DNA from: Holophagales bacterium
GTDB lineage: Bacteria > Acidobacteriota > Thermoanaerobaculia > Multivoradales > Multivoraceae
Assembly: GCA_009845425.1 (NCBI GenBank)
Contig: VXZQ01000001.1
Location: forward strand, 101,303 to 165,302
DNA length: 64,000 nt
Direction: 5' to 3'
Below are positions 6,476 to 35,740 of this stretch, piece after piece (the stretch's first letter is position 1; the number at the start of each line of letters is the position of its first letter). A program made the position numbers and the translations under genes. Under the pieces are notes generated by a model. The model made no database searches and was not told the DNA's origin. It worked only from the letters and a program-made list of their open reading frames with translations.

Positions 6476-6574
6476 TGCGAACCTCCTGTTCCCGCGGCGG
6501 CCGACTCCGTGGGAGCAGGCTCTACCCGGCCCGCAGTATAGACCCGTCGCCGCCGCAACTGTGCTTCGGCCGGT

Positions 6575-6770: not shown

Positions 6771-6773
6771 TGC

Positions 6774-7673: not shown

Positions 7674-7674
7674 C

Positions 7675-11269: not shown

Positions 11270-11317
11270 CGCGAATCGATGGTAGCGCCGGAGGGCTCGC
11301 TCCATTCCGGCGGGCCT

Positions 11318-13021: not shown

Positions 13022-13061
13022 GTCCGGTTTCAGACGCCGGTGTGCGCCGGCGTCAGGAGTC

Positions 13062-13673: not shown

Positions 13674-13814
13674 GTGCCTTTCCTCCCTTGGTTCTACTTC
13701 TGCCTCTTCCTCCTTGTTTACGCCCGCCCGGAGACCAGTCGGCGGCGCTTTCCGCACCGATGGTAGCGTCCGGCTATCGCCACCGGACCATTGAACTTTC
13801 CTGATTTTTCCTAA

Positions 13815-15068
<1,254 letters not shown>

Positions 15069-17107: not shown

Positions 17108-17142
17108 GCCCGCCGCTCATGCGGCGGCCCCTGGGTTCGGCG

Positions 17143-17670
17143 TCAGTCTCCCTGCGCGATCGGGTTCAGGACCATCGTCATCTGACGGCCCTCGAGGCCG
17201 GACCGGGTCTCCACCTCGCCCACTCCCTCGATCGCGTCGCTCACCTTGTCCAGGATGGCGATGCCGAGTTCGGGCCTGCGGAGCTGCCGGTAGCGGAAGA
17301 AGATCGTCACCTTGACCTTCTTGCCCTCGCGGAGGAAACGGAGCGCCCGGTCGGTCTTGATCTGGTAGTCGTGCGGGTCGATCGTCGGCCGGTACTTGAC
17401 CTCCTTCAAATCGATCGTCGCCGCCTTCTTCCGGGACTCCCGTTTCTTCTTCTCGCGCTCGAACTTGACCTTGCCCCAGTCCATGACCCGGACCACGGGC
17501 GGGTCCGCGTTGGGACCCACCTCGACGAGATCGAGTCGGGCGTCCTGGGCGCGCGTCTTTGCGTCTTCCAGGGGAACGACGCCTACCTGGGTGCCGTTCT
17601 GATCGATGAGCCGTACCGGACTCTTCCGGATCCGGTGATTGATGCGCGGCTCGTTTGATGGGGGTGCGAT
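17143..17670 (-). CDS. infC: Translation initiation factor IF-3 (non-canonical ATC start)
   Basis: The frame continues upstream of the track ORF as (I)APPSNEPRINHRIRKSPVRLIDQNG...LDLVEVGPNADPPVVRVMDWGK..., KEVKYRPTIDPHDY, GKKVKVT. AGGAGG SD lies 7 nt before ATC at 17670. Confidence 0.93.
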   Translation of the reverse strand: MAPPSNEPRINHRIRKSPVRLIDQNGTQVGVVPLEDAKTRAQDARLDLVEVGPNADPPVVRVMDWGKVKFEREKKKRESRKKAATIDLKEVKYRPTIDPHDYQIKTDRALRFLREGKKVKVTIFFRYRQLRRPELGIAILDKVSDAIEGVGEVETRSGLEGRQMTMVLNPIAQGD

Positions 17671-17831
17671 CTCGAGGCCTCCTGTGCTGCCGACTACTGG
17701 CGCGGGCCGGAATGGAGGGCTACCTTAGCCGCTTCCCGCCCGCGAGTGTGCGCAGATCCAGTCTGTTGAACCGACGCGGCCGCGGCCGCAGGGCGGCCCT
17801 CGCGACCCGCCCTCACGAACGGTAACTCACG

Positions 17832-18740
17832 TCAACCGGCCACAGCCCGCGTCGCCGGGGTGCTCGCAGCCCGTCGGACCCGCTTCTTCTTCGTCGCCTT
17901 GCGCTGTGCCGCCGCCTTCTTGGCAGGCTTGGACCCGGCGGGTGCCCCGTCCGCCTCCGCCTCGCCGTTCTTCGACAGGCTCGCCTTCAGCGCCTCCATC
18001 AGGTCGATGATCTGCGCCTGGGGCGCCTCCGTCTCGTCGTCCGCCAGCTCGCGACCGTCGATCTTGCTCTGGATCGCGTCCCAGAGCCGCTTGCGCACCT
18101 CGTCCGTGTACTGGTCCGGCTTGAAGTCGTCCGAAGCGATCTGCTCGATCAACTGCACGGCGAGTTCGAGCTCGCCCGGCTTGAGCTCCGTCTCCTCGCC
18201 CAGCGGGACCTCGTCGAAGGACTTCAGTTCGTCCTCGTACTTCAGTTGCTGCATCAGCAGGCCCGAAGCGAAGGGGCGCAGCATGACCAGGTACTGCTTG
18301 CCCCGCGCGGCGTGCTTGGCCAGCGCCGAGCGGCCGGTCTTGCGCATCGCCTCGCTGAGGAGCCGGTAGGCCCGCTCGCCGCCCTTCTCCGGGCCGAGGT
18401 AGTACGACTTCTCGAAGTAGATCGGCTCGACCTCGGCGAGCGGCACGAACTCCGTGATCTCGATCGCCGGCGACGCCTTCTCCTGGAGTTCCTTGATCTC
18501 CTCGTCGCTGAAGGTGACGTACTGGCCCTTGCCGAACTCGTAGCCCTTGATCGTCTCCTTCCGCTCGACGACCACGCCGGTGCGGGGGTTGACCAATTGC
18601 TGCTTGACCCGGGTGTTGTCGCTCGGATCGAGCATGTTGAAGCGGACCCCGCCGGAGGTTTCCGAGGTCGAGTAGAGCCGGACCGGGATGGAAACCAGGC
18701 CAAAGGAAACCGTGCCGGTGCCGACGGAACGAGCGGGCAT
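17832..18740 (-). CDS. ku: Non-homologous end-joining protein Ku
   Basis: GTVSFGLVSIPVRLY, IKGYE, YFEKSYYLGP, AY.LL.EAM, IIDLMEALKASL, basic C-terminal tail. Confidence 0.95.
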   Translation of the reverse strand: MPARSVGTGTVSFGLVSIPVRLYSTSETSGGVRFNMLDPSDNTRVKQQLVNPRTGVVVERKETIKGYEFGKGQYVTFSDEEIKELQEKASPAIEITEFVPLAEVEPIYFEKSYYLGPEKGGERAYRLLSEAMRKTGRSALAKHAARGKQYLVMLRPFASGLLMQQLKYEDELKSFDEVPLGEETELKPGELELAVQLIEQIASDDFKPDQYTDEVRKRLWDAIQSKIDGRELADDETEAPQAQIIDLMEALKASLSKNGEAEADGAPAGSKPAKKAAAQRKATKKKRVRRAASTPATRAVAG

Positions 18741-18814
18741 AGACGGCGGATTCTAGCACCGGAAGCGGTTCCGCGGGGCACTGAGCCGGGCAAAGCGGAG
18801 CCGGCCTGGCGGCC

Positions 18815-18869
18815 GGCGCGTTTCGAAGCCGCCTGCGGCGGCAGCGGGTCAGAAGACCCGCGCACCCAG
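18815..18869 (+). repeat. REP-like element family B, copy 2
   Basis: GGCGCGTTTCGAAGCCGCCTGCGGCGGCAGCGGGTCAGAAGACCCGCGCACCCAG, near-identical to 44725-44779. Confidence 0.85.
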
Positions 18870-18898
18870 TTGTCGGCTTCTGGGAGAATGCACGCCTG

Positions 18899-21478
18899 AT
18901 GCCGCACGGCAATCTGGACGCCTACCGCCGCAAGCGCTCGAGCGAGGCGACGCCCGAGCCGATGGGTTCCCGAACCACGGCCGTCGGCGGGCGCTTCGTG
19001 GTCCAGAAGCACGCCGCCCGGCGGGTCCACTTCGACCTGCGCCTGGAACTCGAGGGCACGCTCAAGTCCTGGGCGGTGCCGCGCGGCCCCAGCCTCGATC
19101 CCGACGTCAAGCGGCTCGCGGTCGCCACCGAGGACCACCCGCTGGAGTACGCCGACTTCGAGGGGTCCATCCCCGCCGGCAACTACGGCGCCGGCGCGAT
19201 GATCGTGTGGGACAGCGGCCGCTGGCTCCCGCTCGAGGACCCGGTTGCCGGGATGGAGAGCGGCAAGCTCCTGTTCGAACTCCACGGCTACAAGCTGCGC
19301 GGCGTCTGGACCCTGTTCCGCACCGGCGGCCGGCGCCGTTCCTCTGACGGCAGCCAGTGGCTGCTGATGAAGAAACCCGACGCGGCCGCACGCCCTCTGG
19401 AAGAAGGCCGCGACGGCGAGGACGAGCTGCCGCCCGAGTCCGTGCTGTCGGGCCTGACCGTCGAGGAGCTCCGGGACGGCTGCGACCGGATCGAAGAGGT
19501 GCGCGCAGGGATCGAAGCGTCGGATGCGCCGCGCCGGTCGGTGGACCCGCGGTCGCTGCCACTGATGCTCGCGACCGCCTCCGACCGGCCCTTCTCGCGC
19601 GCCGGCTGGATCTACGAACTGAAGTACGACGGCTACCGTCTGCTCGCCGCCAAGGAAGGCGGCAGCGTCTTCCTCCGCTACCGGCGCGGCGGCGACGTCA
19701 CCGCGCTCTACCCGGAATTGGCCCGCGCCTTGCGCCGGCTGCCGGTGGAATCGATCGTGCTCGACGGCGAGGTCACCGTGCTCGACGGCGGCGGCCGGCC
19801 CAGCTTCGCCAAGCTGCAGACACGGGCCCTGCTCAGCCGTCCCGTCGACATCGAACAGGCCTCGGTACGCCGGCCAGCGACGCTGTTCGCCTTCGACCTG
19901 GTCTCGTTCGAGGGCCACGACCTGCGGCCGCTGCCCCTGCTCGAGCGCAAGGGATGGCTGGCCCAGGTTCTGCCCCCAGCCGGGCCGCTCCGCTACTCGG
20001 ACCACATCGAGGAACGGGGCGAGGAGTTCTTCGAGCAGGCAGTTGCGATGGGACTCGAGGGGACCATGGCGAAGGACGGTGCGTCGCGGTACACGGGCCG
20101 CCGGTCGTCCTCCTGGGTCAAGCTGCGCGCCGAACGGACGGGGGACTTCGCCATCGTCGGCATGTCGTCGCCCAAGGGCAGCCGGGTGGGCCTGGGCTCG
20201 CTCCACCTCGCAGTATGGGAAGCGGCAGTCGGCGGGCTGGTCTACGCCGGACGCGTCGGCACGGGATTCGACGACGCCACCCTGGCGGAGCTGGCGGAGC
20301 GTCTGTCGGCGAGGCGGCGTGAGGATCCTCCATGCTGGGCGCCCGCGCCTGAGAGCCCCGCCGTGGAGACGGCGCTCACCGACGCCCACCTCCTCGACGG
20401 CCGCGTCGCCGACCAGACCTGGGTCGAGCCGAACGACGAGCTGGTCTGCGAGGTCCGCTTCAAGGAGTGGACTCCCCACGGCCTGCTCCGGCATCCCGTC
20501 TTCCTGCGCCTGCGGGACGACAAGCCGTTGGAGGACTGCGTCCGCCGTGACGAACCCCGCGGCCGCGAAGCCACCCTCCCGGCGCCGCCGGAGCGGCGCG
20601 TCGAGATCACGAACAAATCCAAGGTGTTCTGGCCGGACGAGGGTTACACCAAGGGCGATCTGATCGACTTCTACGCCACCGTTTCAGAGGCGATGCAGCC
20701 CTACCTCACCGACCGCCCGCTGGTGATGACCCGCTACCCCGACGGGATCGAGGGCAAGTCCTTCTTCCAGAAGAACGCGCCCGACTTCGCGCCGGACTGG
20801 CTGCACACGGTCAGGCTGACCAGCCCGCGGACCGGCAAGGATGTCGAGTACTTCGTCTGCCAGAACCGGGAGAGCCTGGTCTACGTGGCCAACCTGGCCG
20901 CGATTGTCCTCCACGTCTGGTCAAGCCGGCTGCACCAACTCGGCCAGCCGGACTGGTGCATCCTCGACCTCGACCCGAAGGACGCCCCCTTCGAGGACGT
21001 GATCGAGATCGCCCTCGCCATCCGGCGTCTGTGCCGGCAAATCGAGCTGCCCGGTTTCGTCAAGACCAGCGGCTCGAGCGGCCTGCACGTGCTGCTGCCG
21101 CTAGGCGGCGCCTGCACTTACGAGCAGTCGCGCAGCCTCGGTCAACTGATCGCCCAGATCATCTGCCGGCAACTGCCCGAGATCGCCACCGTCACCCGCA
21201 ATCCCGAACGCCGCGGCGGCAAGGTCTACATCGACTTCGTCCAGAACGGCCGCGGCCGGCTGCTCGTCGCCCCCTTCAGCGTCCGACCGCTGCCCGCGGC
21301 TCCGGTCTCGACGCCGCTGCGCTGGTCCGAGGTCAAGCCCGGCCTCGACCTGCGCGACCACAACATCCGCACCGTGCCGGAGCGGCTGAAGAAGCTGAAG
21401 ACCGACCCGCTTCGCGGCGTGCTGACGGAGCAGCCGGACCTGCTGGCGGCGCTGCGCCGGCTGAGCGAACTCGTGTAG
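18899..21478 (+). CDS. ligD: DNA ligase D (phosphoesterase-ligase-polymerase)
   Basis: PE domain FVVQKHAARRVHFDLRLE..HPLEY; ligase ELKYDGYR; polymerase RYPDG, FFQKN, DLDP, KTSGSSGLH. Confidence 0.95.
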   Translation: MPHGNLDAYRRKRSSEATPEPMGSRTTAVGGRFVVQKHAARRVHFDLRLELEGTLKSWAVPRGPSLDPDVKRLAVATEDHPLEYADFEGSIPAGNYGAGAMIVWDSGRWLPLEDPVAGMESGKLLFELHGYKLRGVWTLFRTGGRRRSSDGSQWLLMKKPDAAARPLEEGRDGEDELPPESVLSGLTVEELRDGCDRIEEVRAGIEASDAPRRSVDPRSLPLMLATASDRPFSRAGWIYELKYDGYRLLAAKEGGSVFLRYRRGGDVTALYPELARALRRLPVESIVLDGEVTVLDGGGRPSFAKLQTRALLSRPVDIEQASVRRPATLFAFDLVSFEGHDLRPLPLLERKGWLAQVLPPAGPLRYSDHIEERGEEFFEQAVAMGLEGTMAKDGASRYTGRRSSSWVKLRAERTGDFAIVGMSSPKGSRVGLGSLHLAVWEAAVGGLVYAGRVGTGFDDATLAELAERLSARRREDPPCWAPAPESPAVETALTDAHLLDGRVADQTWVEPNDELVCEVRFKEWTPHGLLRHPVFLRLRDDKPLEDCVRRDEPRGREATLPAPPERRVEITNKSKVFWPDEGYTKGDLIDFYATVSEAMQPYLTDRPLVMTRYPDGIEGKSFFQKNAPDFAPDWLHTVRLTSPRTGKDVEYFVCQNRESLVYVANLAAIVLHVWSSRLHQLGQPDWCILDLDPKDAPFEDVIEIALAIRRLCRQIELPGFVKTSGSSGLHVLLPLGGACTYEQSRSLGQLIAQIICRQLPEIATVTRNPERRGGKVYIDFVQNGRGRLLVAPFSVRPLPAAPVSTPLRWSEVKPGLDLRDHNIRTVPERLKKLKTDPLRGVLTEQPDLLAALRRLSELV

Positions 21479-21482: not shown

Positions 21483-24400
21483 TCAGAACTGGAGCCGAAG
21501 ACCCGCGCGCACGCGGCGGCTGGTCTGGAAGGCGGCGGGAAGCGACTCGCGCGGATCCGGCCTTGCCCCCTGCGCTGCCGCGGCGGCGAGCAGGTCGGTG
21601 CGGCCCGGACCGACGAAGACCGGGTCGAGGTAGGCAAGCGGCCAGAGCTGGTTCGCGGCGTCCTGGTCGAAGACGTTGAGGGCCTCGGCGAAGAGGGACA
21701 ACCGCCGGTCCTCCGAGCGAAGCGGGACGCGGTACGTGAGAGACAGGTCGGCGCGCTTGAGATCGGCGCTCTTGACCAGGCCGTCCGGGCCAGACGGAAG
21801 GGGGGTCAGGCCGGTGCTGAGGATGCGGCTTGCCTCGTCGACCCGGACCGTCAGGGCTCGCGGTACGTAGGCGGCGCCCGTGCGGAAGCGGTAGACAAGC
21901 GCCATCAGCCAGCGTTCGCCCGGCGAGAGGACAAGCCAGCCGGAGAGCTGGTGCTCACGGTCGAGGCTCAGGCGGCGGCTGCCACTCGTGACATCGAACA
22001 CGTCGCAGGGGACGGGCGAGGAGCACAAGTCGAGCGCGGCGAGGACCGGATGGGCGCCGGGCAAGGTACCCGCCTCCATTCCGAGCCCGCCGGCCTCGTG
22101 GTTGCCGGTCAACCGGCTCAGGACGTATGAGAAGTGGATCCTCCAGGAGGGGCTGAAGCCGACGTGCGCGTTGAGCTCGGCGCCCCACCAGTCCTGCTCT
22201 AGCTGAGGCAGCTCGCCGCCGGCGCCCCGGCCGGGGGTCAGCAGCGTCGGAACTACCTCGCCGGCGTCCAGCAGCGGCATGAGACGAATGCCGTTCCGCA
22301 ACTGGCGTCGGGAGACGCGCGCCGAGATCACGACGTCGGGCAGGAACTGGTAGCCCGTCCCCAACTGGATCTCTCGCACGCGGGCTGGACGGAGGTCTGG
22401 ATCAACCGCCGCCCTCGCGAAGTCGAGGGGCGCGCCGCTGTAGCCGCCGGTGGCCTCCAGCGCCGCGACCGCGTCGAGATCGGAACGCCCCGCCCGCGGC
22501 CGGAAGACGTCGACGTGCCACCAGGCGGCGCCGCCGTAAGCCTTCCACCTGCCGCGGCCCGCGACGTCCCAGACGAACGCGAGCCGCGGTTCCGTGCGGT
22601 CTGCGAACTCGAGGTCGAGGGGACCCGCCTTTTCTTCTTCGGCGCGTAGTCCAACGTGCAGGGTCAGGTGCCTCTTGAAGGCTCCGCCCACGCGCCAGGC
22701 GTCCTGCGCGTAGAGCGCGCGCTTCTCCTGCCGGAGGCCGGCGGCGCCGAGCGCTCCTCCGCTCCAGGCCTCGGGCGTTCCGCCCGCAAACCGCAGCAAC
22801 CGTCCGGAACCCTGCGATCGGAGGAGTTCGAGGCTGCTCCTGGAGTCCTGAATGCCGATCTCCAGCGTGTGGTCGAACAGGAAGAACGACGGCTCCACCG
22901 CCCAGTTCCGGCGCTCCGCAGCGCGACGGACCCGGCCCGCCGGCGCGGCCTCGTACCAACCCGCCAGCCGCCCGGAGGCGGGCGCCGCGAAGTACAGGCC
23001 CGCGTCTTGCCATGGCTCGCCGTCCTCGATGAGGTCGGATCGACCGCCGAACACGCGCAACCACAGGCGGTCGGTGACTCCCCACTCGACGTTGAGGCTG
23101 GTCGTCTGCCGTCGCGACCGGTCGTTCTCGGTTCCATCCACCGACGGAAGGACTTCCAGCGCCGGTCGCCGACCGTCGAGGTCGCCGGACCCGGCATGGT
23201 GCTTGAGAGTCAGGTTGCTGGCCGAGCCGGCCCACCAGTCGAGCTTGCCGATCGATTGCTCGATCGTCTCGTCCCAGGTCATCGGCGCGACCGCGCCGAA
23301 CAGGCTCTCCGTGCCGCGGGCGCGGCTTCTCGAGTACCCGCCGAACGCACGGGCCCGCTTGTCCCGTAGCGGGCCGCCGGCAAAGACGGTCGCCTCGTCG
23401 CCCTCGATGCGTCGCCGGTCCCTGCCGCCGGCCGGCGATTCTCCGGCACCGAACAGGCGCAGGGCGAGCCGCTCGCCGTTGTCGAGCGGCTCGACCGTCG
23501 ACCAGCCGCCGTTCACCTGCCAGTCGGTCCCCCCCGAACGCGTGATCAGGTCGATGTGGGGCCCGGCCATCGTCGCCGCCAGTTCCATCGTCCAGACGCG
23601 CACCTGATCCACCCAGCGGGGATCGATGGCGGTCGACCCTGGTTCGCGAAGCGCGCTCTCCTGACCGTCGACGCGGTAGTTGGCGAAGCCGGGCGGCCAG
23701 CCGTTGACCGCGACATCCGGGCCCAGCGCGTCGAGGCCGGACGCCAGGTCCAGGTTGAGCGCCGCGACGGCGCCCGGTAGCTGCCGCAGGTCGTCGCCCG
23801 CGAGGACGTTACCGTCGCTGCCGGTGACCACGTCGAGCAACGGCGAGGAAACAAGGTCGAGCGCGGAGGCGCTGCCGGCCCTCATGTGGAAGTCGACCCG
23901 CAGCACGCCGCCCGCAACCAGGATCAGGTTCTCCACGACGGAGGTCGCGTAGCCGTCCACGGTCGCCTCGACGTAGTAGTCGCCCGGTGGTAGACCCGGC
24001 GCCCGAAAACTGCCGCCGCGACCGGCGCGAACGGTCTGGGCGCTGTGCAACTGATCGCCGGTGATCCTGATCTCGGCTCCCGGCAACGGGACGTCCGTCG
24101 CCGCGTCGCGCACCTGGCCGTTGATCTCGCCGTTCAGGCCCGCCGAGGCGGGGCTCGGAGACAACACGGTCAGGCCAACGACTGACGCGACCAGCACCGC
24201 CGTTACCGCAGGCGCGGCCGCCAGACGGGTCGGCTCCTGCTTCGGCAGGAGTAGTGAAGCGAAGGCCGACACCAGGCCGACCACCGCGCCGGCCTGCAAC
24301 ACTGCCGCGAGTTCGAAGCGATCAGCGAGTTCTCCGATACACCAGGTCGCGATCCCGCCCGTCGCGAACAGGAATCCGAGCGCCGTCCCCGAAGCCAGAC

Positions 24401-25403
24401 CCCGACGCCATGGCAGCAACTCCTGAGCCATGACGATCAGGATGGAGTGCGATGCTCCCAGCAGCGCTCCGCAGGGCAGTACGACGGCGAAGATCCAGCC
24501 CCCGGATCCGGGCAGCACGCCCAGCAGGAGGGCACCGAGCAGCGTGGTCAGGAAGACGATCGGCCGTCGACCCCAACGCTCGGCCCAGGCGCCCGCCAGG
24601 ACCGCGGTCAGCGCGCCGCCCAGCAGGAACAGCGCGCTGGCGGAGCCCTGAGCCACGGAGCTGTATCCCCGCTGACTCAGCAGGAGGGGCAGGAACGCCA
24701 TCGTTCCGAACATTGCCCAGGAGCGGCTGGCGAACACCAGGCCAAGGAGAGCGATGACGCCGCCGCGCACCTGGCGGCCGGCGGACACGGTGGCGTCACC
24801 CGCCTGATTCTCGTTCGGTTGCGACGCCGCGGGCGCCGGGTGAACCCGTCGCGGTCCCATCGCGAAGGCCATGAACAGCGGCACGGGCGCCGCGAAGAGC
24901 AGGAGCCAGTAGATCCCGTTCAGCCCCGCCCGATCGAGGGCCAGTCCCGCCAGGACCGGCCCGGTCGTCAGCCCGAGCTGACCGCAGAAGAAGAAGATGG
25001 CCGTGAAGGTGGCGGAGCGGGCCAGGTTCACCGTGCTGGAGTGCATCACGCCCAGCGGATGAAAGGCGCCCGAAGCAACCGCGGCGAGCGCGAACGGAAT
25101 GAGAAACAGGACGAATCTCCCCGTCGCGGCGGCTGCTGCGACCGCCAGGCCCATGCAGGCGAAGTTGAAAGCGACGCTGAACGGACCCAGGAAACGGCTG
25201 CCGACCCGGTCGACCAACCAGCCGAAGGCCGGCTGCGTGGTGCCGGCGAGAACCTGGAACAGTCCCACCGCGAGGCCGATCTGGGCGGCGCTGAGGCCGA
25301 GCGGCGCCTGGAGGAAGGCCAGCAGGACCGGCCCCATGCTGTTGAAGATGTCGATGCCGAGGTGACCGACCGTCACCGCGGCGAAGATTCGCCGGCCGTT
25401 CAT
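21483..25403 (-). CDS. Fusion of an Fsr-like MFS transporter (aa 1-~390), an internal signal peptide and an Oar-like TonB-dependent receptor (aa ~422-1306)
   Basis: MFS motifs QPAFGWLVDRVGSR, FHPLG, GAWAERWGRR. Then SPSPASA|GLNGEINGQVRDA...LPPGDY (carboxypeptidase-regulatory-like domain), YAQDAW..LTLHVGLR, PRLAFVWDVAGRG, and terminal RAGLRLQF. No internal stop. Confidence 0.8.
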   Translation of the reverse strand: MNGRRIFAAVTVGHLGIDIFNSMGPVLLAFLQAPLGLSAAQIGLAVGLFQVLAGTTQPAFGWLVDRVGSRFLGPFSVAFNFACMGLAVAAAAATGRFVLFLIPFALAAVASGAFHPLGVMHSSTVNLARSATFTAIFFFCGQLGLTTGPVLAGLALDRAGLNGIYWLLLFAAPVPLFMAFAMGPRRVHPAPAASQPNENQAGDATVSAGRQVRGGVIALLGLVFASRSWAMFGTMAFLPLLLSQRGYSSVAQGSASALFLLGGALTAVLAGAWAERWGRRPIVFLTTLLGALLLGVLPGSGGWIFAVVLPCGALLGASHSILIVMAQELLPWRRGLASGTALGFLFATGGIATWCIGELADRFELAAVLQAGAVVGLVSAFASLLLPKQEPTRLAAAPAVTAVLVASVVGLTVLSPSPASAGLNGEINGQVRDAATDVPLPGAEIRITGDQLHSAQTVRAGRGGSFRAPGLPPGDYYVEATVDGYATSVVENLILVAGGVLRVDFHMRAGSASALDLVSSPLLDVVTGSDGNVLAGDDLRQLPGAVAALNLDLASGLDALGPDVAVNGWPPGFANYRVDGQESALREPGSTAIDPRWVDQVRVWTMELAATMAGPHIDLITRSGGTDWQVNGGWSTVEPLDNGERLALRLFGAGESPAGGRDRRRIEGDEATVFAGGPLRDKRARAFGGYSRSRARGTESLFGAVAPMTWDETIEQSIGKLDWWAGSASNLTLKHHAGSGDLDGRRPALEVLPSVDGTENDRSRRQTTSLNVEWGVTDRLWLRVFGGRSDLIEDGEPWQDAGLYFAAPASGRLAGWYEAAPAGRVRRAAERRNWAVEPSFFLFDHTLEIGIQDSRSSLELLRSQGSGRLLRFAGGTPEAWSGGALGAAGLRQEKRALYAQDAWRVGGAFKRHLTLHVGLRAEEEKAGPLDLEFADRTEPRLAFVWDVAGRGRWKAYGGAAWWHVDVFRPRAGRSDLDAVAALEATGGYSGAPLDFARAAVDPDLRPARVREIQLGTGYQFLPDVVISARVSRRQLRNGIRLMPLLDAGEVVPTLLTPGRGAGGELPQLEQDWWGAELNAHVGFSPSWRIHFSYVLSRLTGNHEAGGLGMEAGTLPGAHPVLAALDLCSSPVPCDVFDVTSGSRRLSLDREHQLSGWLVLSPGERWLMALVYRFRTGAAYVPRALTVRVDEASRILSTGLTPLPSGPDGLVKSADLKRADLSLTYRVPLRSEDRRLSLFAEALNVFDQDAANQLWPLAYLDPVFVGPGRTDLLAAAAAQGARPDPRESLPAAFQTSRRVRAGLRLQF

Positions 25404-28518: not shown

Positions 28519-29649
28519 TCAGACGTTGGGCCGGGTCTGTCCTGGTTTGAGGCGGCCGGCGAAGATGACCAAGGGAACGAGTAGGGCCGCCAGAACCAGG
28601 CCGGGCGCGACGAAGGGAGGAAGGACCCAGATGCGGTTGCCGCCGGCGGAGCTTTCGTAGCTGGCGACGGGAGCAGCGCCCTCCTCCTGGAGGCGCTGGA
28701 CTCTCTCCATCGGGAAGGCGTGGCGCAGGCTGCCGTCGGGATTCCGAACTTCCTCCAGTACGGACGGGTAGTAGCGGTCGAGGATCGCCTGCTCGGCGGC
28801 GGCTGTGGCCCAGTCTTCGGCGTCGAAGGCTTCGTTGCGGGCCTGGACGTGCCAGGTGGCCTCGTTCAGGAAGTGATCCTGGATCTGCCAGGGCTGGAAG
28901 GGCGGCACCGGCGGCTGCTTCGCAGGCCAGCGGGTACGGCGGTCATCGTTCAGGTGCTCGAGCAGGCCGGCGGTGTAGTAGCTGCGGAAACTGCCGAGTT
29001 CCGGGTCCACGATGAGGCGGCCGAGGTTCGTGCGGTCAGCGAGGAGGAAAGAAGCGGTGACGAACCATAGCCACAGAACCGCGATCATCTTGCGTTCGGC
29101 GGTCGCGGGCGTCCGGAAGTCGAACCCGAAGAGGCCCGCCCCGAAGACGACCCCGCAACCTGCGGCCGAAGCGTTCAGCACGCAGTCGTAGAAGTCGCCG
29201 ACGCGGGTCCAGACCAGCCACTGGACAAACTCGTCGGCGAGCCCGACGAGCGAGGTCAGAACGACGGCAGAGAACGCCGCCGCGATGGCCGACCGACCGC
29301 CCCGGAGGAAGGCCCGGTACAGGAGCAGCGCGACGACGCCGTAGAGCACCAGGTGCATCCGCTCCAGGGCGGACTCTTCGGGACGGCCGCGTGCCAGGGC
29401 GGTCGCCTGCACGATGGCCCAGAGCGCGCCGGCGCCGAGCGCGGCGTAGTTGCGCCACCGGAGCCGCCGCGACACGCGCACGATCCAGACCACGAACGCC
29501 GCCGCCGCGCCCCAGAACAGGATCGTCGGCACGATCACGAGGAGCGAACGGTCCACCTCCTCCTGAATCCACCGGGTCAGCCGACCCAGGAAGGGCGCCG
29601 AGCCCACGATCCAAAGAGCGATCAGGGCAGGTGCCGAAAACCGACGCAT
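28519..29649 (-). CDS. VanZ-like domain membrane protein
   Basis: ERMHLVLYG...GLADEFVQWLVWTRVGDFYDCVLN VanZ-like motif; multiple TM helices; start moved to ATG 29649. Confidence 0.7.
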   Translation of the reverse strand: MRRFSAPALIALWIVGSAPFLGRLTRWIQEEVDRSLLVIVPTILFWGAAAAFVVWIVRVSRRLRWRNYAALGAGALWAIVQATALARGRPEESALERMHLVLYGVVALLLYRAFLRGGRSAIAAAFSAVVLTSLVGLADEFVQWLVWTRVGDFYDCVLNASAAGCGVVFGAGLFGFDFRTPATAERKMIAVLWLWFVTASFLLADRTNLGRLIVDPELGSFRSYYTAGLLEHLNDDRRTRWPAKQPPVPPFQPWQIQDHFLNEATWHVQARNEAFDAEDWATAAAEQAILDRYYPSVLEEVRNPDGSLRHAFPMERVQRLQEEGAAPVASYESSAGGNRIWVLPPFVAPGLVLAALLVPLVIFAGRLKPGQTRPNV

Positions 29650-29718
29650 TGACGAAAGGACGCTAGCAGCCCAGTGTCGACCGGGGTGTAGGCTCTTGGC
29701 AGGAGGTAGCGGGAGCAC

Positions 29719-30792
29719 ATGGCAGAGCCAGCGCGAATCGACGTTCACGGTACGGAAGGAGCCCCCCATCGTCGTCCCGTCTCGGCGAACAGCGGCGGCG
29801 ACCTGAGAGAGGCGCTCGACGACTTCCTCGAGCTGAAGGAGATGGTCGCGGCCCGGGAGGGTGATCGAGCCCTTCACGACCAGCCGCAGATGGTGAGTCG
29901 CTTCTACGATGTCGTCACCAAGTTCTATGAGTACGGCTGGGGCCAGTCGTTCCACTTCTCCCCACGACGGTCCGGCGAGAGCCTCCGGGACGCCGTCCGC
30001 CGTCACGAGATCAGCATCGGCGAACTCCTGTCCCTCGGGCCGGGAACGAAGGTCGCCGACATCGGATGCGGTGTCGCCGGGCCGCTGGTCACCATCGCGA
30101 GTTCCACCGGGGCCAGCATCACGGGGATCAACCTCAACGCGTACCAGATCGCGAGAGGCCAGCGATCGCTGCACCGCGCCGGCCTTCAGGAAACATGCGG
30201 TTTCCTGCTCGCCAGCTTCATGGACGTGCCCCTCGACGACGGCCATTTCGATGCCGCGTACTCGTTCGAATCGACCTGCCACGCGCCCGACAAGACCCTC
30301 TGCTTCAAGGAGCTCTACCGGCTGCTCAGGCCGGGAGGTGAACTCGCTCTGATCGACTGGTGCCTGACCGAGGACTTCGACGAGCACGACCCGGTCCATC
30401 GCGACATTCGGGACCGACTCGAGTTTGGAAACGCGACGCCCAACCTGCTCACGACCTCCAGCCAACTCGACCTCGTTCGGACCGTCGGATTCGAGATTCT
30501 CTCGAGCCGCGACCAGGCGCTTGAGTGCGACCCGGACGCTCCCTGGTACCGGTCGCTCCAGGGCCGTGACCTTTCGCTCGCGTCACTCGGGCGGATTCCC
30601 GCCGGCCGATGGTTTACTGCCAAGGCCACCAGCCTGCTGGAGCTGCTGCGCATCGCGCCCGCCGGCACCGGCGAGGCCGCCCGCATCCTGAACGTCGCGG
30701 CCGACTCCCTCGTCGAGGCCGGCGTGGCGGGAATCTTCACGCCGTCCTTCCTGATCCACGCGCGCAAACCGGACGGTTCGGTCTCCTCGTAG
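29719..30792 (+). CDS. Sterol 24-C-methyltransferase (ERG6/SMT)-like SAM-dependent methyltransferase
   Basis: SMT region I FYEYGWGQSFHFS, SAM motif ADIGCGVAGP, TGINLNAYQI, region III YSFESTCHAP, LRPGG, C-terminal GIFTP.....ARKP. Confidence 0.88.
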   Translation: MAEPARIDVHGTEGAPHRRPVSANSGGDLREALDDFLELKEMVAAREGDRALHDQPQMVSRFYDVVTKFYEYGWGQSFHFSPRRSGESLRDAVRRHEISIGELLSLGPGTKVADIGCGVAGPLVTIASSTGASITGINLNAYQIARGQRSLHRAGLQETCGFLLASFMDVPLDDGHFDAAYSFESTCHAPDKTLCFKELYRLLRPGGELALIDWCLTEDFDEHDPVHRDIRDRLEFGNATPNLLTTSSQLDLVRTVGFEILSSRDQALECDPDAPWYRSLQGRDLSLASLGRIPAGRWFTAKATSLLELLRIAPAGTGEAARILNVAADSLVEAGVAGIFTPSFLIHARKPDGSVSS

Positions 30793-30808
30793 CGGCTGAG
30801 AGTCCGTC

Positions 30809-31963
30809 ATGGGCTTGAGGACTCGCCGTTCAGGGCGCCGGGAACCCACCACATCCGACGACCTGCGTCTCGCCGGCTATCCCCATCCCTATCCGGACGG
30901 CTGGTACCGGCTCACGACTTCGAGGTCGCTACGGCGCGGGCAGATCCGCTACGTGGAGTGCCTCGGCCGCGCCGTGGTCGTGTGGCGGAGCAAAGACGGC
31001 GACGACGTGCACGCCATGCAGGCGTTCTGCCCCCACCTGGGCGCCAATCTCCGGCATGGCCGCGTCCGCGAGGACCGCATCGAGTGCCCGTTCCACAACT
31101 GGCAGTTCACCGGCGACGGCCGGGCGGCCCGCGTGCCCTACAGCGACAGCGTGCCGTCCCGCGTCGCGGCCGAGAGCTTCCCCGTCCAGGACGTGAACGG
31201 GCAGGTCTTCCTCTATCACCGGGCCGCCGGACCAAACCAGCGAGCCGGCGACGACGTCCCCTACCCGGTTCCCCGCATCCATGAGGTCGACGACGGCAGT
31301 TTCGTCTACCGCGGGCACCACGACGCTGGCCGCGTTCGCATGCACATCGTCGAGTTCCTCGAGAACACGGCCGACTTCGCCCACTTCAAGTACATCCACA
31401 GCCAGATGACGGTCCCATGGACGCAGATTCCCGTTCCCGGCGTCCAGCTCGAACACAGGCCGGGCTGGGAACTGGACGACGAGCGGCCCTGGAGGTTGTA
31501 CTTCCTGGACGAAACCGTGCTCAAGCTTCGCGGCCGCCGTCTCGAACGAACCCGGGCAAGCGCCCGGGTCACGTGCACCGGACCTGCCAGCATCATCAAC
31601 TTCCGGATCACGATCCCCGGCGCCGGCGACGTCGAGATCGTGCAGACCCACCTTCCGGTCGCGCCGCTCGAGCAGCAGGTCGACTTCCACTGGTTCGCCG
31701 ACCGCCGGATGCCGCGCCTGCTCGTGTGGTACGTCGTCGGCAACTGGATCTCCCAATGGCGGCACGACATCCAGATCTGGGAGAACAAGACCTACACGAC
31801 CCACCCGACCCTCTGCCGCGACGACGGGCCCGTCGTCCGGCTGCGGCGCTGGTACCGGCAGTTCTTTCCGGAGTGGCAGACGCCAGCCGTGCCGCCCGAG
31901 GCGCCGCCGAGCTCCCCGCGCGAGCGGGCCGAACGCCCGCTAGCCGGCGTCGCCTCGAACTGA
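30809..31963 (+). CDS. Rieske non-heme iron sterol oxygenase/desaturase (Neverland/DAF-36/KshA-like)
   Basis: PYPDGWY, Rieske CPHLG...CPFHNW, mononuclear Fe motif HIVEFLENTADFAHFKYIH, C-terminal DIQIWENK.Y...P.L...DGP...LRRWY.QF. Confidence 0.85.
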   Translation: MGLRTRRSGRREPTTSDDLRLAGYPHPYPDGWYRLTTSRSLRRGQIRYVECLGRAVVVWRSKDGDDVHAMQAFCPHLGANLRHGRVREDRIECPFHNWQFTGDGRAARVPYSDSVPSRVAAESFPVQDVNGQVFLYHRAAGPNQRAGDDVPYPVPRIHEVDDGSFVYRGHHDAGRVRMHIVEFLENTADFAHFKYIHSQMTVPWTQIPVPGVQLEHRPGWELDDERPWRLYFLDETVLKLRGRRLERTRASARVTCTGPASIINFRITIPGAGDVEIVQTHLPVAPLEQQVDFHWFADRRMPRLLVWYVVGNWISQWRHDIQIWENKTYTTHPTLCRDDGPVVRLRRWYRQFFPEWQTPAVPPEAPPSSPRERAERPLAGVASN

Positions 31964-31996
31964 CCGGACGCACCACCCGCTGCTAGCCTTTCGGCG

Positions 31997-33115
31997 ATGG
32001 TCGGCTACCGCTTGATCTGCATCCTGCTGGCCGGCATGGCGGCACCGGCGCCGGCCGCCGACCCGGAGTCGAGCCCGGTGGTCCGCATCGAACGCTGGAT
32101 CGAGGGCGGCGCCCGGGTCGACTGGTCCCGCCAGGGCGACTGGCTGGCCTACGACAAGGCCGGAGAGGACGGCCGCTACGACGTCTACATCACCTCCACC
32201 GACCTCCTGGCCGAGCGCTGCCTGACGTGCGACATGTACGCGCTGCGCAAGGACAACGCGATGAACCCCGCGTGGCACCCCTCGGGCGAGCGGCTCGTCG
32301 TGCAGGTCCAGAGCCACCCGAAGCGGCTCAGGTTCGTGGCCGATCCGCTGAGGCTCCTGACTCCCGACCGCGGCGTTCACAGCGAGTTCTACGACATCGA
32401 CCGCAGGGGCAAGCACTTCACCCTGCTCACCCGGTTCGCGGCCAGCGGCTCGGCGGTGCTCGACCCCCACTTCGCCTTCGACAGCGACCGACTGCTCTGG
32501 AGCGAGCGGATCAAGGCGCGCAAGGGACGCTACGGCGCCTGGCAACTGCGCAGCGCCCAGTTCCGGGTCAACCGCAGCGGCATCCCCAAGCTGCGCAGGG
32601 TGCGGACGCACGCCGCGCCGGTCGACGCGCTGATCGTCCCCCAGGGCTACACGCCCGACGATCGCGGCGCCCTGGTCGCGGCGAACCTGGAGCCTGGACA
32701 GTCGCCCGACACGCTCGACCTCTACCGGCTGCGCTTCGACGGCGGCGAGCCCGAACGCCTTACCCACTCCCGGAGCGGCGCCGACGAGTACGCCCGGCTG
32801 TCGCCCACCGGCCGGCACCTCGCCTTCACTTCGAACGCCGGGATCCGCGGCACCGAGCCCGATCAGATCGTGCCTTCCTCAGCTCGTCGCGAGCTGTGGC
32901 TGATGGACGCGGACGGCTCGAACAAGCGCCGGCTCACGTTCTTCAACGACCCGACCTCCGAGGACAGCCTCGGCCACACCTACGTCGGCGATCTGACCTG
33001 GAGTCCAACCGGCGACCAAATCGCCGTCCACGTCCTCTGGGGCGGCAGCCGCAACGGCGACCGCCCGCGCGAAGCGCTGTACCGTATCCACCTCGACCCG
33101 TCGTTCCGGCGCTAA
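31997..33115 (+). CDS. TolB-like (PD40) beta-propeller protein, secreted
   Basis: Signal peptide; repeats WSRQGDWLAY, PAWHPSGE, LSPTGRHLAF, LWLMDADGSNKRRLT, WSPTGDQIA. Confidence 0.8.
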   Translation: MVGYRLICILLAGMAAPAPAADPESSPVVRIERWIEGGARVDWSRQGDWLAYDKAGEDGRYDVYITSTDLLAERCLTCDMYALRKDNAMNPAWHPSGERLVVQVQSHPKRLRFVADPLRLLTPDRGVHSEFYDIDRRGKHFTLLTRFAASGSAVLDPHFAFDSDRLLWSERIKARKGRYGAWQLRSAQFRVNRSGIPKLRRVRTHAAPVDALIVPQGYTPDDRGALVAANLEPGQSPDTLDLYRLRFDGGEPERLTHSRSGADEYARLSPTGRHLAFTSNAGIRGTEPDQIVPSSARRELWLMDADGSNKRRLTFFNDPTSEDSLGHTYVGDLTWSPTGDQIAVHVLWGGSRNGDRPREALYRIHLDPSFRR

Positions 33116-33125: not shown

Positions 33126-34475
33126 ATGAGAAAACGTCCCGCCTCGTTCCTGTTGGCCGTCGCGCCGGCGGCACTCCTTGCCGCCATGCCCGCCGCCGCG
33201 CAGGACGACCCCCACGTCTTCCGCGGCGCGCGGCTGCTGCCGATCAGTGGAGAGCCGATCGACAACGGCGTCCTCATCGTCCAGGGCGGCAGGATCACCG
33301 AGGTCGGCGGTGCCGACGCGCGCACGCCCCGCGGCGCCGTCGAGCACGACGTCAGCGGCAAGGTGCTGATGCCCGGGCTCGTCGACACCCACTCGCACAT
33401 CGGCTCGGTCTCCGGCGGCGACCGCTCCTCACCGCTGCATCCCGACGTGCGCAATCTGGACTCGATCGACATCGCCTCCGACAGCATCTGGCGCGCCCGC
33501 GCCGGCGGCATCACGACGGTCAACATGATGTCGGGGTCGGGCCACCTCATGTCCGGGCAGACCGTCTACGTCAAGCTCCGCGACGGCGCCCGAACGATCG
33601 AGGACTGGCTCTTCTGCGACGATCCGCTGACGGGTATCTGTGGCGGCCTCAAGATGGCGAACGGCACGAACTCCATCGGCCAGCCGCCCTTCCCCGGCAC
33701 CCGCGCCAAGTCCGCGGCCCTGGTCCGCAACCTCTACCACGAGGCCGTGGAGTACCGCGAGAAGATGGCCGCCGCCGAGGCCGAGGGGAACGCCGAAGGC
33801 GGCGACGGGCCGGCGAAGCGCGACCTGCGGATGGAGGCCCTGGTCGAGGTGCTCGACGGCAGGAGGATCGTCCAGCACCACACCCACCGCCACAACGACA
33901 TCGCCACCGTCCTGCGGCTCAAGGAGGAGTTCGGATTCCGGGTCGTCGCCCAGCACGGGACCGAGTCCTGGAAGGTCGCCGAGGAACTCGCAGCCGCGGA
34001 CGTGCCGGTGTCCATCACCTGGATCGACACGCCGGGCGGCAAGGAAGAGACGATGGGCTGGAACATGGAGATGGGAGCGATCCTGGAGCGGGCAGGCGTC
34101 GACGTCAGCTTCAACACGGACGACTCAGTCACCGATTCGCGCCTCCTCGCCCGGGGCGCCGCGATCGCGGTGCGCTACGGCATGTCGCGCGAGAAGGCGA
34201 TCGAGGGGCTGACCCTCGCCCCGGCGCGGGCGCTCGGGCTCGAGGATCGCGTCGGTTCGCTGGAGGTGGGCAAGGACGCCGACTTCGTCATCCTCTCCGG
34301 CGACCCGCTCAGCGTCTACACGAAGGTCGAACAGACCTGGGTCGAGGGGACGATGATCTACGACCGGGCGAACCCGGACCACCGCAAGTACGCCGTCGGC
34401 GGCTACAAGGTCTACACGACGACCGCCCACGAAGACGAGATGATGCGCCAGTTGCTGGAGAGGGAGTCGCATTGA
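33126..34475 (+). CDS. Amidohydrolase family protein, secreted
   Basis: MPGLVDTHSH, LKMANG, HTHR, QHG, NTDD, GSLEVGKDAD. Confidence 0.88.
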   Translation: MRKRPASFLLAVAPAALLAAMPAAAQDDPHVFRGARLLPISGEPIDNGVLIVQGGRITEVGGADARTPRGAVEHDVSGKVLMPGLVDTHSHIGSVSGGDRSSPLHPDVRNLDSIDIASDSIWRARAGGITTVNMMSGSGHLMSGQTVYVKLRDGARTIEDWLFCDDPLTGICGGLKMANGTNSIGQPPFPGTRAKSAALVRNLYHEAVEYREKMAAAEAEGNAEGGDGPAKRDLRMEALVEVLDGRRIVQHHTHRHNDIATVLRLKEEFGFRVVAQHGTESWKVAEELAAADVPVSITWIDTPGGKEETMGWNMEMGAILERAGVDVSFNTDDSVTDSRLLARGAAIAVRYGMSREKAIEGLTLAPARALGLEDRVGSLEVGKDADFVILSGDPLSVYTKVEQTWVEGTMIYDRANPDHRKYAVGGYKVYTTTAHEDEMMRQLLERESH

Positions 34476-35740
34476 AGAACGAAACAGCCCTCGCCGCCCT
34501 GCTCGTCGCCGCGACGACGGGCTCCGCAGTCGCCCAGGTCGCGGTCCGTGCCGGCACCCTCCACACCGTGTCCGGCGCGCCGATCGAGAACGCCGTCGTC
34601 ATCGCCGGCGCCGACGGCAAGATCGAATGGGTCGGCCCAGCGGCCGAGGCGGACATTCCGGACGGCGTTGACGTCCTCGAAGCCGCCGTCGTCACGCCCG
34701 GACTCGTCGACGCCCGCTCGGTCGTCGGCCTCTCCGGCGCCCTGAACAGCAACGTCGGCCCGGTGCGCGACCAGGACCAGCTCGAACGGTCGTCGCCGCT
34801 CCAGCCCGACCTGCGGGCGATCGACGCCTACGACGCGAACGAGACCCTGGTCGAGTGGGTCCGCTCGTACGGCGTCACGACACTCCACACGGGCCACGGC
34901 CCGGGGGCCCTGGTCAGCGGCCAGACGATGATCGCGAAGACCAGGGGCCGCAACGTCGAACAGGCCACCCTGATGCCGGTGCGGATGCTGGCGGCGACGC
35001 TCGGCAACGCGGTGTCCTCGAACTTCCAGTCGCCGGGGACGTCGGCCAAGGGCATCGCGATGCTCCGGTCCGCTCTTCACGGTGCCCAGTCCTACCTCGA
35101 CCAGGTGCGCAAGGCGGAGGAGGCCAGCGGCGACGAGAACGGAGACGGTGACGAGGACGGCGACGCCAAGCCCGCACCCCAGCCGCCGCCCAGGGACCTC
35201 TCCAAGGAAGCGCTCGGCCAGGTGCTCGACGGCGAACTCTCCCTGCTGGTCACCGCGAACACGGTGGCCGAGATGGCCTCGGCGCTCCGCCTGCAGCAGG
35301 AGTTCGGGTTCGACCTCGTGCTCGACAGCGCCGCCGAGTCCTACCTGCTGCTCGAGGAGATCCGCGAGGCCGGCGTGCCGGTCCTGCTCCACCCGACGAT
35401 GAGCCGGGTCCGCAACGGCTCCTACGAGACCGCCGCTACCCTCGCCGACGCCGGCATACCGTTCGCCATCCAGACCGGTTTCGAGGGCTACGTGCCCAAG
35501 ACGCGCGTCCTGCTCTGGGAGGCGGCCATCGCCGCCGCCAACGGCCTCGGCATGGAACGGGCGCTGGAGGCAATCACGCTGAGCCCGGCCCGCATTCTCG
35601 GCATCGACGACCGCGTCGGCTCGATCGAGGTCGGCAAGGACGCCGACCTCGCCCTCTTCGACGGCGACCCGTTCGAGTACACGAGCCACATCTGTGGCGT
35701 GATCATCGAGTCGGAGGTGATGTCGGCGGAGTGCCGGTAG
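34472..35740 (+). CDS. Amidohydrolase-family paralog lacking the HxH metal motif
   Basis: TPGLVDARS in place of DxHxH; GVTT; GSIEVGKDADL; overlaps the stop of the previous gene. Confidence 0.85.
   Translation: MKNETALAALLVAATTGSAVAQVAVRAGTLHTVSGAPIENAVVIAGADGKIEWVGPAAEADIPDGVDVLEAAVVTPGLVDARSVVGLSGALNSNVGPVRDQDQLERSSPLQPDLRAIDAYDANETLVEWVRSYGVTTLHTGHGPGALVSGQTMIAKTRGRNVEQATLMPVRMLAATLGNAVSSNFQSPGTSAKGIAMLRSALHGAQSYLDQVRKAEEASGDENGDGDEDGDAKPAPQPPPRDLSKEALGQVLDGELSLLVTANTVAEMASALRLQQEFGFDLVLDSAAESYLLLEEIREAGVPVLLHPTMSRVRNGSYETAATLADAGIPFAIQTGFEGYVPKTRVLLWEAAIAAANGLGMERALEAITLSPARILGIDDRVGSIEVGKDADLALFDGDPFEYTSHICGVIIESEVMSAECR

Follow-up and report, generated by a model that had tools for sequence, protein, structure and literature searches.

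A putative sterol-tailoring gene pair in a Holophagales bacterium: a sterol C-24 methyltransferase-family gene beside a Neverland-type Rieske oxygenase gene

What use might a bacterium without an oxidosqualene cyclase (OSC) have for two neighboring genes whose products both belong to families of sterol-modifying enzymes? The question is raised by a 64,000-nucleotide stretch of a Holophagales genome (G000:C7:101303-165302, ~68% GC), hereafter the window, in which the gene for a sterol methyltransferase (SMT), SMT1, stands directly upstream of that for a Rieske oxygenase (RO), RO1. A preliminary description of the window had read the first as a C-24 methyltransferase and the second as akin to Neverland (Nvd)/DAF-36, the cholesterol 7-desaturase of animals, with the two co-directional and 16 bp apart. 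The open reading frames (ORFs) bear out this layout (Table 1), and both family assignments stand, as set out below. We consider it probable that the pair tailors exogenous sterols.

The two genes and their protein families

That SMT1 belongs to the true SMT family, and is not a generic S-adenosylmethionine (SAM)-dependent methyltransferase, is now supported by domain matches, homolog names and SMT motif residues. The Pfam domain Sterol_MT_C (PF08498) scores 67.8 bits at residues 295-351, against a cut-off of 21.7, and is preceded by Methyltransf_11 (PF08241; 67 bits, residues 114-210). Every motif quoted in the preliminary description is present in the translations of the two genes, those of SMT1 being YEYGWGQSFHF (70-80), DIGCGVAGP (114-122), YSFESTCH (at 181) and GIFTP (at 338). 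According to a recent preprint, every functional SMT keeps GWGxxFHF, DxGxGxxGP, a Region III glutamate and a Region IV glycine (Brown & Welander, 2025); SMT1 retains these residues in Regions I-IV as GWGQSFHF (73-80), DIGCGVAGP, E184 and G206, at a constant offset of -11 to the published numbering, together with the C-terminal G.FTP. The same preprint reports that phenylalanine at two Region I positions favors propylation; in SMT1 these positions, 81 and 83, are both tyrosine, which argues weakly for one or two methylations over propylation. A search of 5.8 billion proteins placed 692 SMT1 relatives among 8000 candidates scored. The best 120 of the 692 are 59-93% identical to SMT1 and carry Sterol_MT_C without exception, and many of the best relatives are named "sterol 24-C-methyltransferase" by the Joint Genome Institute (JGI) or come from metagenome-assembled genomes of Acidobacteriota or Acidimicrobiaceae. 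Bacterial SMTs are reported to alkylate desmosterol and/or 24-methylenecholesterol in vitro in 8/10 cases from sponge-symbiont metagenomes and 12/14 from other environments (Brown et al., 2023).

RO1 combines a Rieske domain (77.4 bits, Pfam) with a KshA_C domain (83.9 bits), and its fold appears evident from the sequence. Its motifs comprise PYPDGWY, CPH...CPFH, HIVEFLENTADFAHF, DIQIWENKTY and DGPVVRLRRWY, and the columns of the Rieske ligands (C74, H76, C93, H96) and of the iron site (D189, H192, H197, D320) do not vary among 10 bacterial members of the family and align with the ligand motifs of KshA. Two blocks, YPxPYPDGWY, which starts at residue 24, and EFLENTADFAHF, resemble Nvd and protist proteins and are unlike their KshA counterparts (RGWHCLG and DNxVDMAHFFYIH); the DGPxxxLRRWY tail at the C-terminus is common to RO1 and KshA, and motif comparison thus agrees with the earlier remark that this tail is shared. 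KshA is also the best solved-structure match of RO1 (131 bits), but the match has no discriminating power, since the top PDB match of a named shark Nvd protein is KshA as well (141 bits); no Nvd structure is found among the PDB matches of RO1 or of the named Nvd. An identity of RO1 with SdmA was rejected, the NF052579 model scoring 55.6 bits against a cut-off of 600 and only over profile positions 18-182, the Rieske domain. Close relatives of RO1 (53-94% identity) are bacterial, and automatic JGI names label RO1 homologs cholesterol 7-dehydrogenase/desaturase, several of the close relatives ("cholesterol 7-dehydrogenase") included. Beyond this bacterial family, the next matches in a HMMER scan of 1.84 billion representatives are 35-46% identical at 250-340 bits. 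Long relatives of 518-745 amino acids (aa) were considered as SMT-Rieske fusions and dismissed, since Pfam finds only Rieske and KshA_C in the 10/10 tested and no domain in their N-terminal parts; in nine relatives the N-terminal extension looks hydrophobic as judged by eye, as distinct from a transmembrane prediction.

Is RO1, then, closer to Nvd or to KshA? By blastp it is 39-45% identical to protist homologs, 29-33% to named animal Nvd/DAF-36 and 25-27% to true KshA, and 24-25% over ~190 residues to the SdmA-like proteins of relatives. Relatives named "cholesterol 7-desaturase nvd" or "daf-36", from fish, a bird, echinoderms, a hemichordate, a scallop and insects, were found with a EukProt transcript relative as the query, which also reached Corallochytrium and Ectocarpus proteins and JGI-named KshA. 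Once three true KshA encoded by one actinobacterial genome (627 bits to PDB 4qdf) and the SdmA-like proteins of two relatives (392-398 bits on NF052579) are added, the careful tree holds 52 rows and 380 columns; most of the representative proteins are unnamed rows, which are taken as eukaryotic on the strength of N-terminal extensions and tree neighbors. It divides at 98/95 into a KshA-like side of 16 rows, on which the three true KshA fall, and an Nvd side of 36 rows that includes RO1. The bacterial RO1 family forms a single clade of 17 rows (98/97), and animal Nvd (7 rows, 98/100) stands beside a 27-row group of bacterial and protist sequences; an earlier quick tree gives a picture that agrees. 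A clade of the RO1 family with true KshA, a grouping named after the tree had been seen, is rejected by the approximately unbiased (AU) test (p 1.6e-5, delta lnL 71). On the tree and this test RO1 lies outside true KshA, and the 98/95 split, the AU result, the identities and the motif blocks all favor the earlier view that the second gene is closer to Neverland/DAF-36 than to KshA.

Distribution of the pair and sterol synthesis capacity of its carriers

The adjacency of the two genes is not unique to this genome. Among species-representative genomes, an SMT gene lies directly upstream of the RO homolog in 26/40 loci, and on metagenome contigs, assessed where at least 1150 bp upstream of the RO are available, a co-directional SMT does so in 36/55 loci, or in 25/43 clusters after collapse at 95% aa identity, with a gap between the alignments of mostly 29-57 nt. 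Acidobacteriota-type genomes (Holophagales, Thermoanaerobaculia, "Candidatus Multivorans", Vicinamibacteraceae, Acidobacteria) account for 24 of the 26 adjacent genome loci and count as one lineage, because the whole neighborhood is common to them; the remaining loci come from Pseudomonadales (L049) and Acidimicrobiales (L053), and in L053 the SMT and RO ORFs overlap by 4 bp. The linked metagenome cases are mostly RO homologs distant from RO1, with an SMT upstream in 33/37 loci below 45% identity and in 2/6 loci at 45-49%. On a quick RO tree (65 rows, LG+G4) adjacency is spread over several branches and implies at least four changes, one 21-row clade being wholly adjacent. SMT and RO co-occur also where they are not adjacent: Sterol_MT_C is present in 18/23 genomes with an RO homolog versus 0/14 control genomes. 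In the window, consensus scans of positions 29300-32300 returned 0 terminator-like and 0 promoter-like sites, in an organism that may not use the sigma-70 consensus. Spacing, absence of a terminator-like site and conserved adjacency together make SMT1 and RO1 operon-like, a predicted two-gene operon, and their third-position GC content (0.83 and 0.89) is as high as expected of real genes in a 68% GC genome.

Besides SMT and RO, the sole neighbor common to many metagenome loci is a 548-aa FAD_binding_4 protein encoded directly after the RO in 18 loci, which we take to resemble the sterol delta-24 reductase DHCR24; no homolog of it was found in the genome of the window. The resulting SMT/RO/FAD-protein triad occurs in one metagenome clade (L165 and 17 other loci). 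Among Acidobacteriota relatives, the identities of the SMT to SMT1 (70-99%) and of the RO to RO1 (73-99%) assort independently. One locus combines an SMT of 75% with an RO of 97% (L022) and another an SMT of 95% with an RO of 79% (L039), amid flanking genes of mostly ~80-99%, which suggests recombination or allele exchange within the pair.

Can the cell make its own sterols? The assembly, of 17 contigs, is 98% complete, and no contig other than C11 and C6 has cyclase-family matches, in keeping with the earlier observation that the window holds no cyclase. The only intact cyclase, on C11, is a squalene-hopene cyclase (SHC; 602.6 bits on TIGR01507, cut-off 431) that falls short on the OSC model (221 bits, cut-off 851); it adjoins a radical-SAM protein with a DUF3463 domain, presumably HpnH-like. 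Genome-wide searches for osc and sqe, proposed in the preliminary description, returned no OSC and no PF08491 squalene epoxidase match, and no SdmA was found either, the best NF052579 match being at most 55.8 bits. Exogenous sterols are therefore the likely substrates, and the result fits the scavenging first suggested. The C6 matches, four pieces in three frames, were considered as a decayed OSC; since they are ~70% identical to the genome's own SHC versus 27-40% to the OSC of relatives, they represent a frameshifted, internally deleted SHC pseudogene.

Across the 23 genomes with an RO homolog, scores on the OSC model are bimodal, either 619-772 or at most 255 bits, with eight genomes in the high class and none at the strict cut-off; we call a cyclase OSC-like at 600 bits or more. 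Of the 18 genomes that hold both SMT and RO, 13 have no OSC-like cyclase; the 13 include the nearest relatives, four in number, and five chromosome-level genomes (G004, G009, G011, G015, G016) that by title represent four phyla. G009 and G015 have neither a cyclase match nor a match to SQS_PSY, the squalene/phytoene synthase family, and G012-G014 and G016-G018 have no cyclase-model match. Two relatives whose RO is 75-76% identical to RO1, G005 and G006, carry in one cluster an sdmA-like gene (392-398 bits, full-length), a P450 gene and an OSC gene (750-772 bits). The flanks of the G005 cluster are 88-94% identical to genes at G000:C7:241-253 kb, ~80 kb downstream of the window, yet the syntenic site (G000:C7:246700-250400) holds two unrelated genes and no remnants of sdmA, P450 or OSC even at E = 10. 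The SMT/RO pair thus occurs with and without a de novo pathway, and here it occurs without one. In another genome of the set (G019), a 1114-aa protein joins a UbiH-type FAD monooxygenase domain, at its N-terminus, to an OSC-like domain, an architecture that recalls the bifunctional epoxidase/cyclase MsbE described from a Melophlus symbiont. UbiH-OSC fusions are also hinted at in G008, G022 and G010, where the OSC matches coincide with open frames of 1130, 1130 and 1056 aa.

A second sterol-type module lies at the end of contig C2 (Table 1). It encodes another KshA_C Rieske protein (RO2) and another SMT (SMT2), along with an FAD amine-oxidase-like protein, a GPP34-P450 fusion and an RND transporter. 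The nearest relatives keep the module, and two Acidimicrobiia genomes have it in rearranged form; in these two, RO2 is 51-53%, SMT2 55-60% and the P450, over its fused length, 58-59% identical; the FAD protein is 79% identical and present in one of the two. The P450 was considered as a true CYP51 and rejected, its best PDB matches being CYP51 at only 85 bits; the best PDB match of the FAD protein is the amine oxidase LkcE (103 bits), and a function follows for neither protein. Near the module are genes for a 533-aa ankyrin-repeat protein and a sulfatase, two kinds of gene often enriched in sponge symbionts. A candidate reductase for RO1 with Fer2, FAD and NAD domains is encoded on contig C9, unlinked to the pair. 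The earlier statement that no reductase gene lies in the window agrees with the position of all eight Fer2 matches of the genome outside it; other kinds of reductase were not searched for.

Where does the organism live? Several studies of sponge metagenomes have runs that contain the stretch, one of them contributing four runs from which its DNA may derive, and contigs of three further studies span both genes at 95-99% identity. In a sponge metatranscriptome run (X20), 21 contigs are 85-95% alike (about 90%) and come from a relative; one of 189 nt spans the SMT/RO junction, and others cover RO1 and the junction between RO1 and the PD40 gene that follows.

The genes flanking the pair encode a GCS2 ligase, a gamma-glutamyltranspeptidase, a VanZ-like membrane protein (on the opposite strand), a PD40 beta-propeller protein and two amidohydrolases, none with a nameable sterol link. 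The amidohydrolases, 3' of the PD40 gene, are tandem paralogs of ~33% mutual identity, kept in all Acidobacteriota relatives of the locus whose sequence reaches that far. Elsewhere in the window, a 1306-aa ORF of unusual architecture joins an N-terminal MFS transporter domain and CarboxypepD_reg to a long C-terminal part without Pfam matches.

Table 1. Location of the gene pair and of other features named in the text (plain coordinates refer to the window, those after an L number to that locus)
Feature	Location	Strand	Basis or remark
Shine-Dalgarno-like AGGAGG	29701..29706	+	12 nt 5' of SMT1 ATG, read in sequence
SMT1, sterol C-24 methyltransferase family, 357 aa	29719..30792	+	ORF, Pfam, motifs
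SMT1/RO1 spacer, 16 bp, no terminator-like site	30793..30808	+	ORF ends, consensus scan
RO1, Neverland/DAF-36-family Rieske non-heme-iron oxygenase, 384 aa	30809..31963	+	ORF, Pfam, ligands, tree
X20 contig over the SMT/RO junction	30669-30857		metatranscriptome run
MFS/CarboxypepD_reg ORF	21483-25403	-	
Tandem amidohydrolase paralogs	33126-35740	+	
Second sterol-type module	L009 (G000:C2:378000-397509) 10855-19435		end of contig C2
RO2, KshA_C Rieske protein, 366 aa	second module	+	KshA-like side of tree, apart from true KshA
FAD amine-oxidase-like protein	second module	-	
GPP34-P450 fusion, 674 aa	second module	-	
SMT2	second module	-	Sterol_MT_C 57 bits, Region I GWGESLHF
RND transporter	second module	-	
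Ankyrin-repeat protein and sulfatase	L009 2501-4102 and 8139-9569		near second module
Candidate RO1 reductase	G000:C9:112758-113975		Fer2, FAD and NAD domains
SHC pseudogene	L063 (G000:C6:170000-185000) ~6587-7919; pieces at G000:C6:176587-177919		identity to own SHC
sdmA-like/P450/OSC clusters	L062 4155-10006, L061 3912-10615		relatives G005, G006
UbiH-OSC fusion	L065 5061-8405		G019
SMT/RO/FAD-protein triad	FAD protein at L165 6065-7708		example
Independently assorting loci	L021-L041, L054, L055, L057, ~4900-7150		Acidobacteriota relatives

Weighing the proposed function

The best explanation overall, to which we give an even chance, is that the pair is co-transcribed and modifies scavenged sterols by C-24 methylation and C7(8) desaturation. 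In this scheme the two genes would be transcribed together in a sponge-associated Acidobacteriota-type bacterium unable to cyclise oxidosqualene. SMT1 would transfer a methyl group from SAM to the delta-24 side-chain double bond, turning, for example, desmosterol into a 24-methylene or 24-methyl sterol. RO1, as a putative soluble bacterial member of the Neverland/DAF-36 Rieske family, would receive electrons from a separate reductase at its [2Fe-2S] cluster (C74, H76, C93, H96) and pass them to the mononuclear iron (H192, H197, D320). There, activated O2 would oxidise the ring system of the sterol, and the likeliest outcome would be the C7(8) desaturation known from characterised members of the family. 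In the claim that RO1 is specifically a C7(8)-desaturase our confidence stops a little short of even. The substrates would most likely be sterols of the sponge host or of its food, and the products 24-alkylated and/or delta-5,7 sterols. A eukaryotic parallel is Capsaspora, which is reported to make ergosterol from scavenged cholesterol by means of an SMT and two desaturases, a Rieske enzyme for C7 and a P450 for C22 (PMC4967820). For the pair itself we infer the substrates, the position of attack, the order of steps, uptake, the products (24-alkyl-delta5,7 sterols) and the source of the sterols.

Several observations weigh against this scheme. RO1 reaches no more than the 29-33% identity to characterised animal Nvd given above and has no N-terminal extension, eukaryote-type relatives aligning to it from 41-370 residues in. 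The bacterial RO1 clade is nested in the 27-row group with protist sequences at only 88/98, and the AU test fails to reject (p 0.244) a tree that joins the bacterial family to all of the KshA-like side and thereby places it outside the eukaryotes; the nesting among protists, and with it any direction of transfer, is therefore tentative. The position that RO1 attacks is unreadable from sequence, because the KshA_C fold also serves hydroxylation (KshA) and C-4 methyl oxidation (SdmA). The SMT reaction requires a delta-24 sterol, no sterol uptake system was identified, and no reductase gene lies beside the pair. Nor is the coupling universal: 14/40 genome loci have no upstream SMT, those of Gemmatimonadota, other Acidimicrobiia, other Gammaproteobacteria and Nannocystis among them, and of the metagenome loci at least 50% identical to RO1 an SMT is upstream in 1/12 and absent in 11/12. 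OSC-like cyclases are carried by 5/18 genomes with SMT and RO, where the same enzymes may therefore serve de novo synthesis. Finally, the X20 contigs are a weak hint of expression and do not prove a joint transcript, carry-over of the relative's DNA being possible and their depth being unable to rank genes.

Must RO1 work at C7(8) if the pair tailors sterols? It could instead act on the side chain (C-22, C-24(25), C-25) or at another ring position, and in an attractive version of this idea it would make the delta-24 bond for the neighboring SMT from a saturated host sterol, although we know of no Rieske side-chain sterol desaturase. Such a role would suit the tight, repeatedly kept coupling with a side-chain enzyme, the apparently DHCR24-like protein after the RO in 18 metagenome loci, and the modest identity of RO1 to characterised Nvd. 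It is also consistent with the different targets of other KshA_C proteins, C-9 for KshA and the C-4 methyl for SdmA (NCBIfam names; PMC10202945). We nonetheless judge it rather unlikely, given that every characterised member of the Nvd side, where RO1 falls, is reported to be a C7(8)-desaturase (PMC4967820) and that the iron-site motif blocks of RO1 are Nvd/protist-like. A catabolic KshA that opens ring B for growth on steroids, with the SMT next to it by coincidence, would account for the KshA_C domain, the DGP..LRRWY tail and the best solved-structure match. Against it stand the named animal Nvd that also matches KshA best, the 25-27% identity to true KshA, the rejection of the clade (AU p 1.6e-5), the replacement in RO1 of the KshA motifs RGWHCLG and DMAHFFYIH, and a conserved neighbor that is a biosynthetic methyltransferase (kstD and hsaA-D were not searched for); we regard it as highly improbable.

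The substrates, too, could be of other origin. If the pair belonged to bacterial de novo sterol synthesis, it would be a leftover after loss of the cyclase cluster or would act on intermediates made in the community, and this would accord with the sdmA-like/P450/OSC clusters of G005 and G006, the synteny of the G005 flanks with contig C7, the OSC-like cyclases in 5/18 genomes, and the published bacterial SMT clusters, reported to hold OSC, sdmA and sdmB (Brown et al., 2023; the msb cluster, PMC7074536). Yet both genes are intact with invariant catalytic residues, the pair is kept in at least five closed or near-complete OSC-less genomes from four phyla, a second intact sterol module is retained, and no remnants of an OSC cluster persist at the syntenic site; the pair therefore looks like a maintained function, not decay, and we find this origin improbable. 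There is an even slimmer chance that the substrates are endogenous triterpenoids, SMT1 methylating an olefin of the squalene or hopanoid type and RO1 oxidising the product. The SHC beside the DUF3463 radical-SAM protein marks the organism as a hopanoid maker, and the SMT family includes enzymes that act on compounds other than sterols, such as the SMT-like triterpene methyltransferases of Botryococcus. Against the idea speak G009 and G015, which hold SMT and RO but have neither a cyclase nor a SQS_PSY match; G012-G014 and G016-G018 likewise have no cyclase-model match. So do the close bacterial SMT relatives from sponge metagenomes reported to methylate sterols in vitro (Brown et al., 2023), and the nearest characterised kin of RO1, which act on cholesterol.

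Known systems and wider meaning

Neverland orthologues are reported from animals, some ciliates, Capsaspora and a choanoflagellate (PMC4967820). Like Neverland/DAF-36/DES7 of animals and ciliates and the Capsaspora homolog, RO1 combines Rieske and KshA_C domains and falls on the same side of the tree (98/95), and it shares with the family the blocks YPxGW(Y/F) and E(F/I)xENxxDxxH(F/L). Unlike them it is bacterial, lacks the long N-terminal extension and is encoded beside an SMT; it is known here from its sequence. The reported action of a Capsaspora SMT, P450 and Rieske protein on scavenged cholesterol parallels the SMT/RO pair and the P450-bearing second module of this genome (PMC4967820). 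SMT1 resembles the published bacterial SMTs in its Methyltransf_11 and Sterol_MT_C domains, its conserved residues and its link to sponge metagenomes, but the emphasis of those reports is on OSC/sdmA/sdmB clusters and de novo synthesis (Brown et al., 2023; Brown & Welander, 2025), whereas here there is no OSC and the partner is a Neverland-type Rieske protein. KshA (PDB 2zyl, 4qdc, 4qdf) provides the closest solved structures and shares with RO1 the fold, the Rieske and iron ligands and the DGPxxxLRRWY tail; RO1 differs in its separate clade, its 25-27% identity and, as far as its neighbors can be named, the lack of kshB or a catabolic context beside it. SdmA and the msbB of a Melophlus symbiont are likewise KshA_C-type Rieske oxygenases, described as acting on sterols and encoded near SMT genes, the msb cluster holding an SdmAB-type Rieske pair, an OSC fusion and an SMT (PMC7074536); RO1 has no adjoining SdmB-type reductase and scores 55.6 bits on the SdmA model, versus 392-398 for the SdmA-like proteins of G005 and G006.

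Bacterial SMTs and their OSC/sdmA/sdmB clusters are thus already known. As for the pair, the preliminary description knew of no operon of an SMT with an Nvd-like gene, and none was found in the literature searched: no bacterial SMT plus Neverland-type pair was found described, and neither "Rieske" nor "desaturase" appears in the main text of Brown et al. (2023) or of Brown & Welander (2025), although Supplementary Data 1 of the former, which lies outside that search, may list such genes. Discussion has so far centred on bacteria that make sterols de novo; this locus represents a different mode, in which one or two intact tailoring modules are kept without an OSC and the methyltransferase is repeatedly coupled to a relative of the animal cholesterol 7-desaturase. 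Both genes are small and their products soluble and easy to express, which makes the question directly testable.

A broader and more tentative reading, which we think unlikely but worth stating, joins these observations. The SMT and the Neverland-type oxygenase would form a mobile sterol-remodelling cassette carried by symbionts of at least four phyla that lack sterol synthesis of their own, to which some lineages add a DHCR24-like reductase or a second module (SMT2, GPP34-P450, FAD oxidase, Rieske protein). Host sterols would be converted into 24-alkyl, delta-5,7 (provitamin-D-type) sterols and returned, and the family would record a transfer of Neverland between eukaryotes and bacteria. Side-chain alkylated steranes serve as sponge and algal fossils, a reading already weakened because uncultured bacteria, as known since 2023, own working SMTs. 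If the cassette reading is true, part of the unusual "sponge" sterols, and of the sterane record attributed to sponges and algae, would reflect bacteria acting on eukaryotic sterols. If the predicted activities of SMT1 and RO1 are true, symbionts would edit the sterols of their hosts, beyond making or eating them, the Neverland family would not be confined to eukaryotes, and the delta-5,7 and 24-alkyl sterols of sponges would possibly be of mixed origin.

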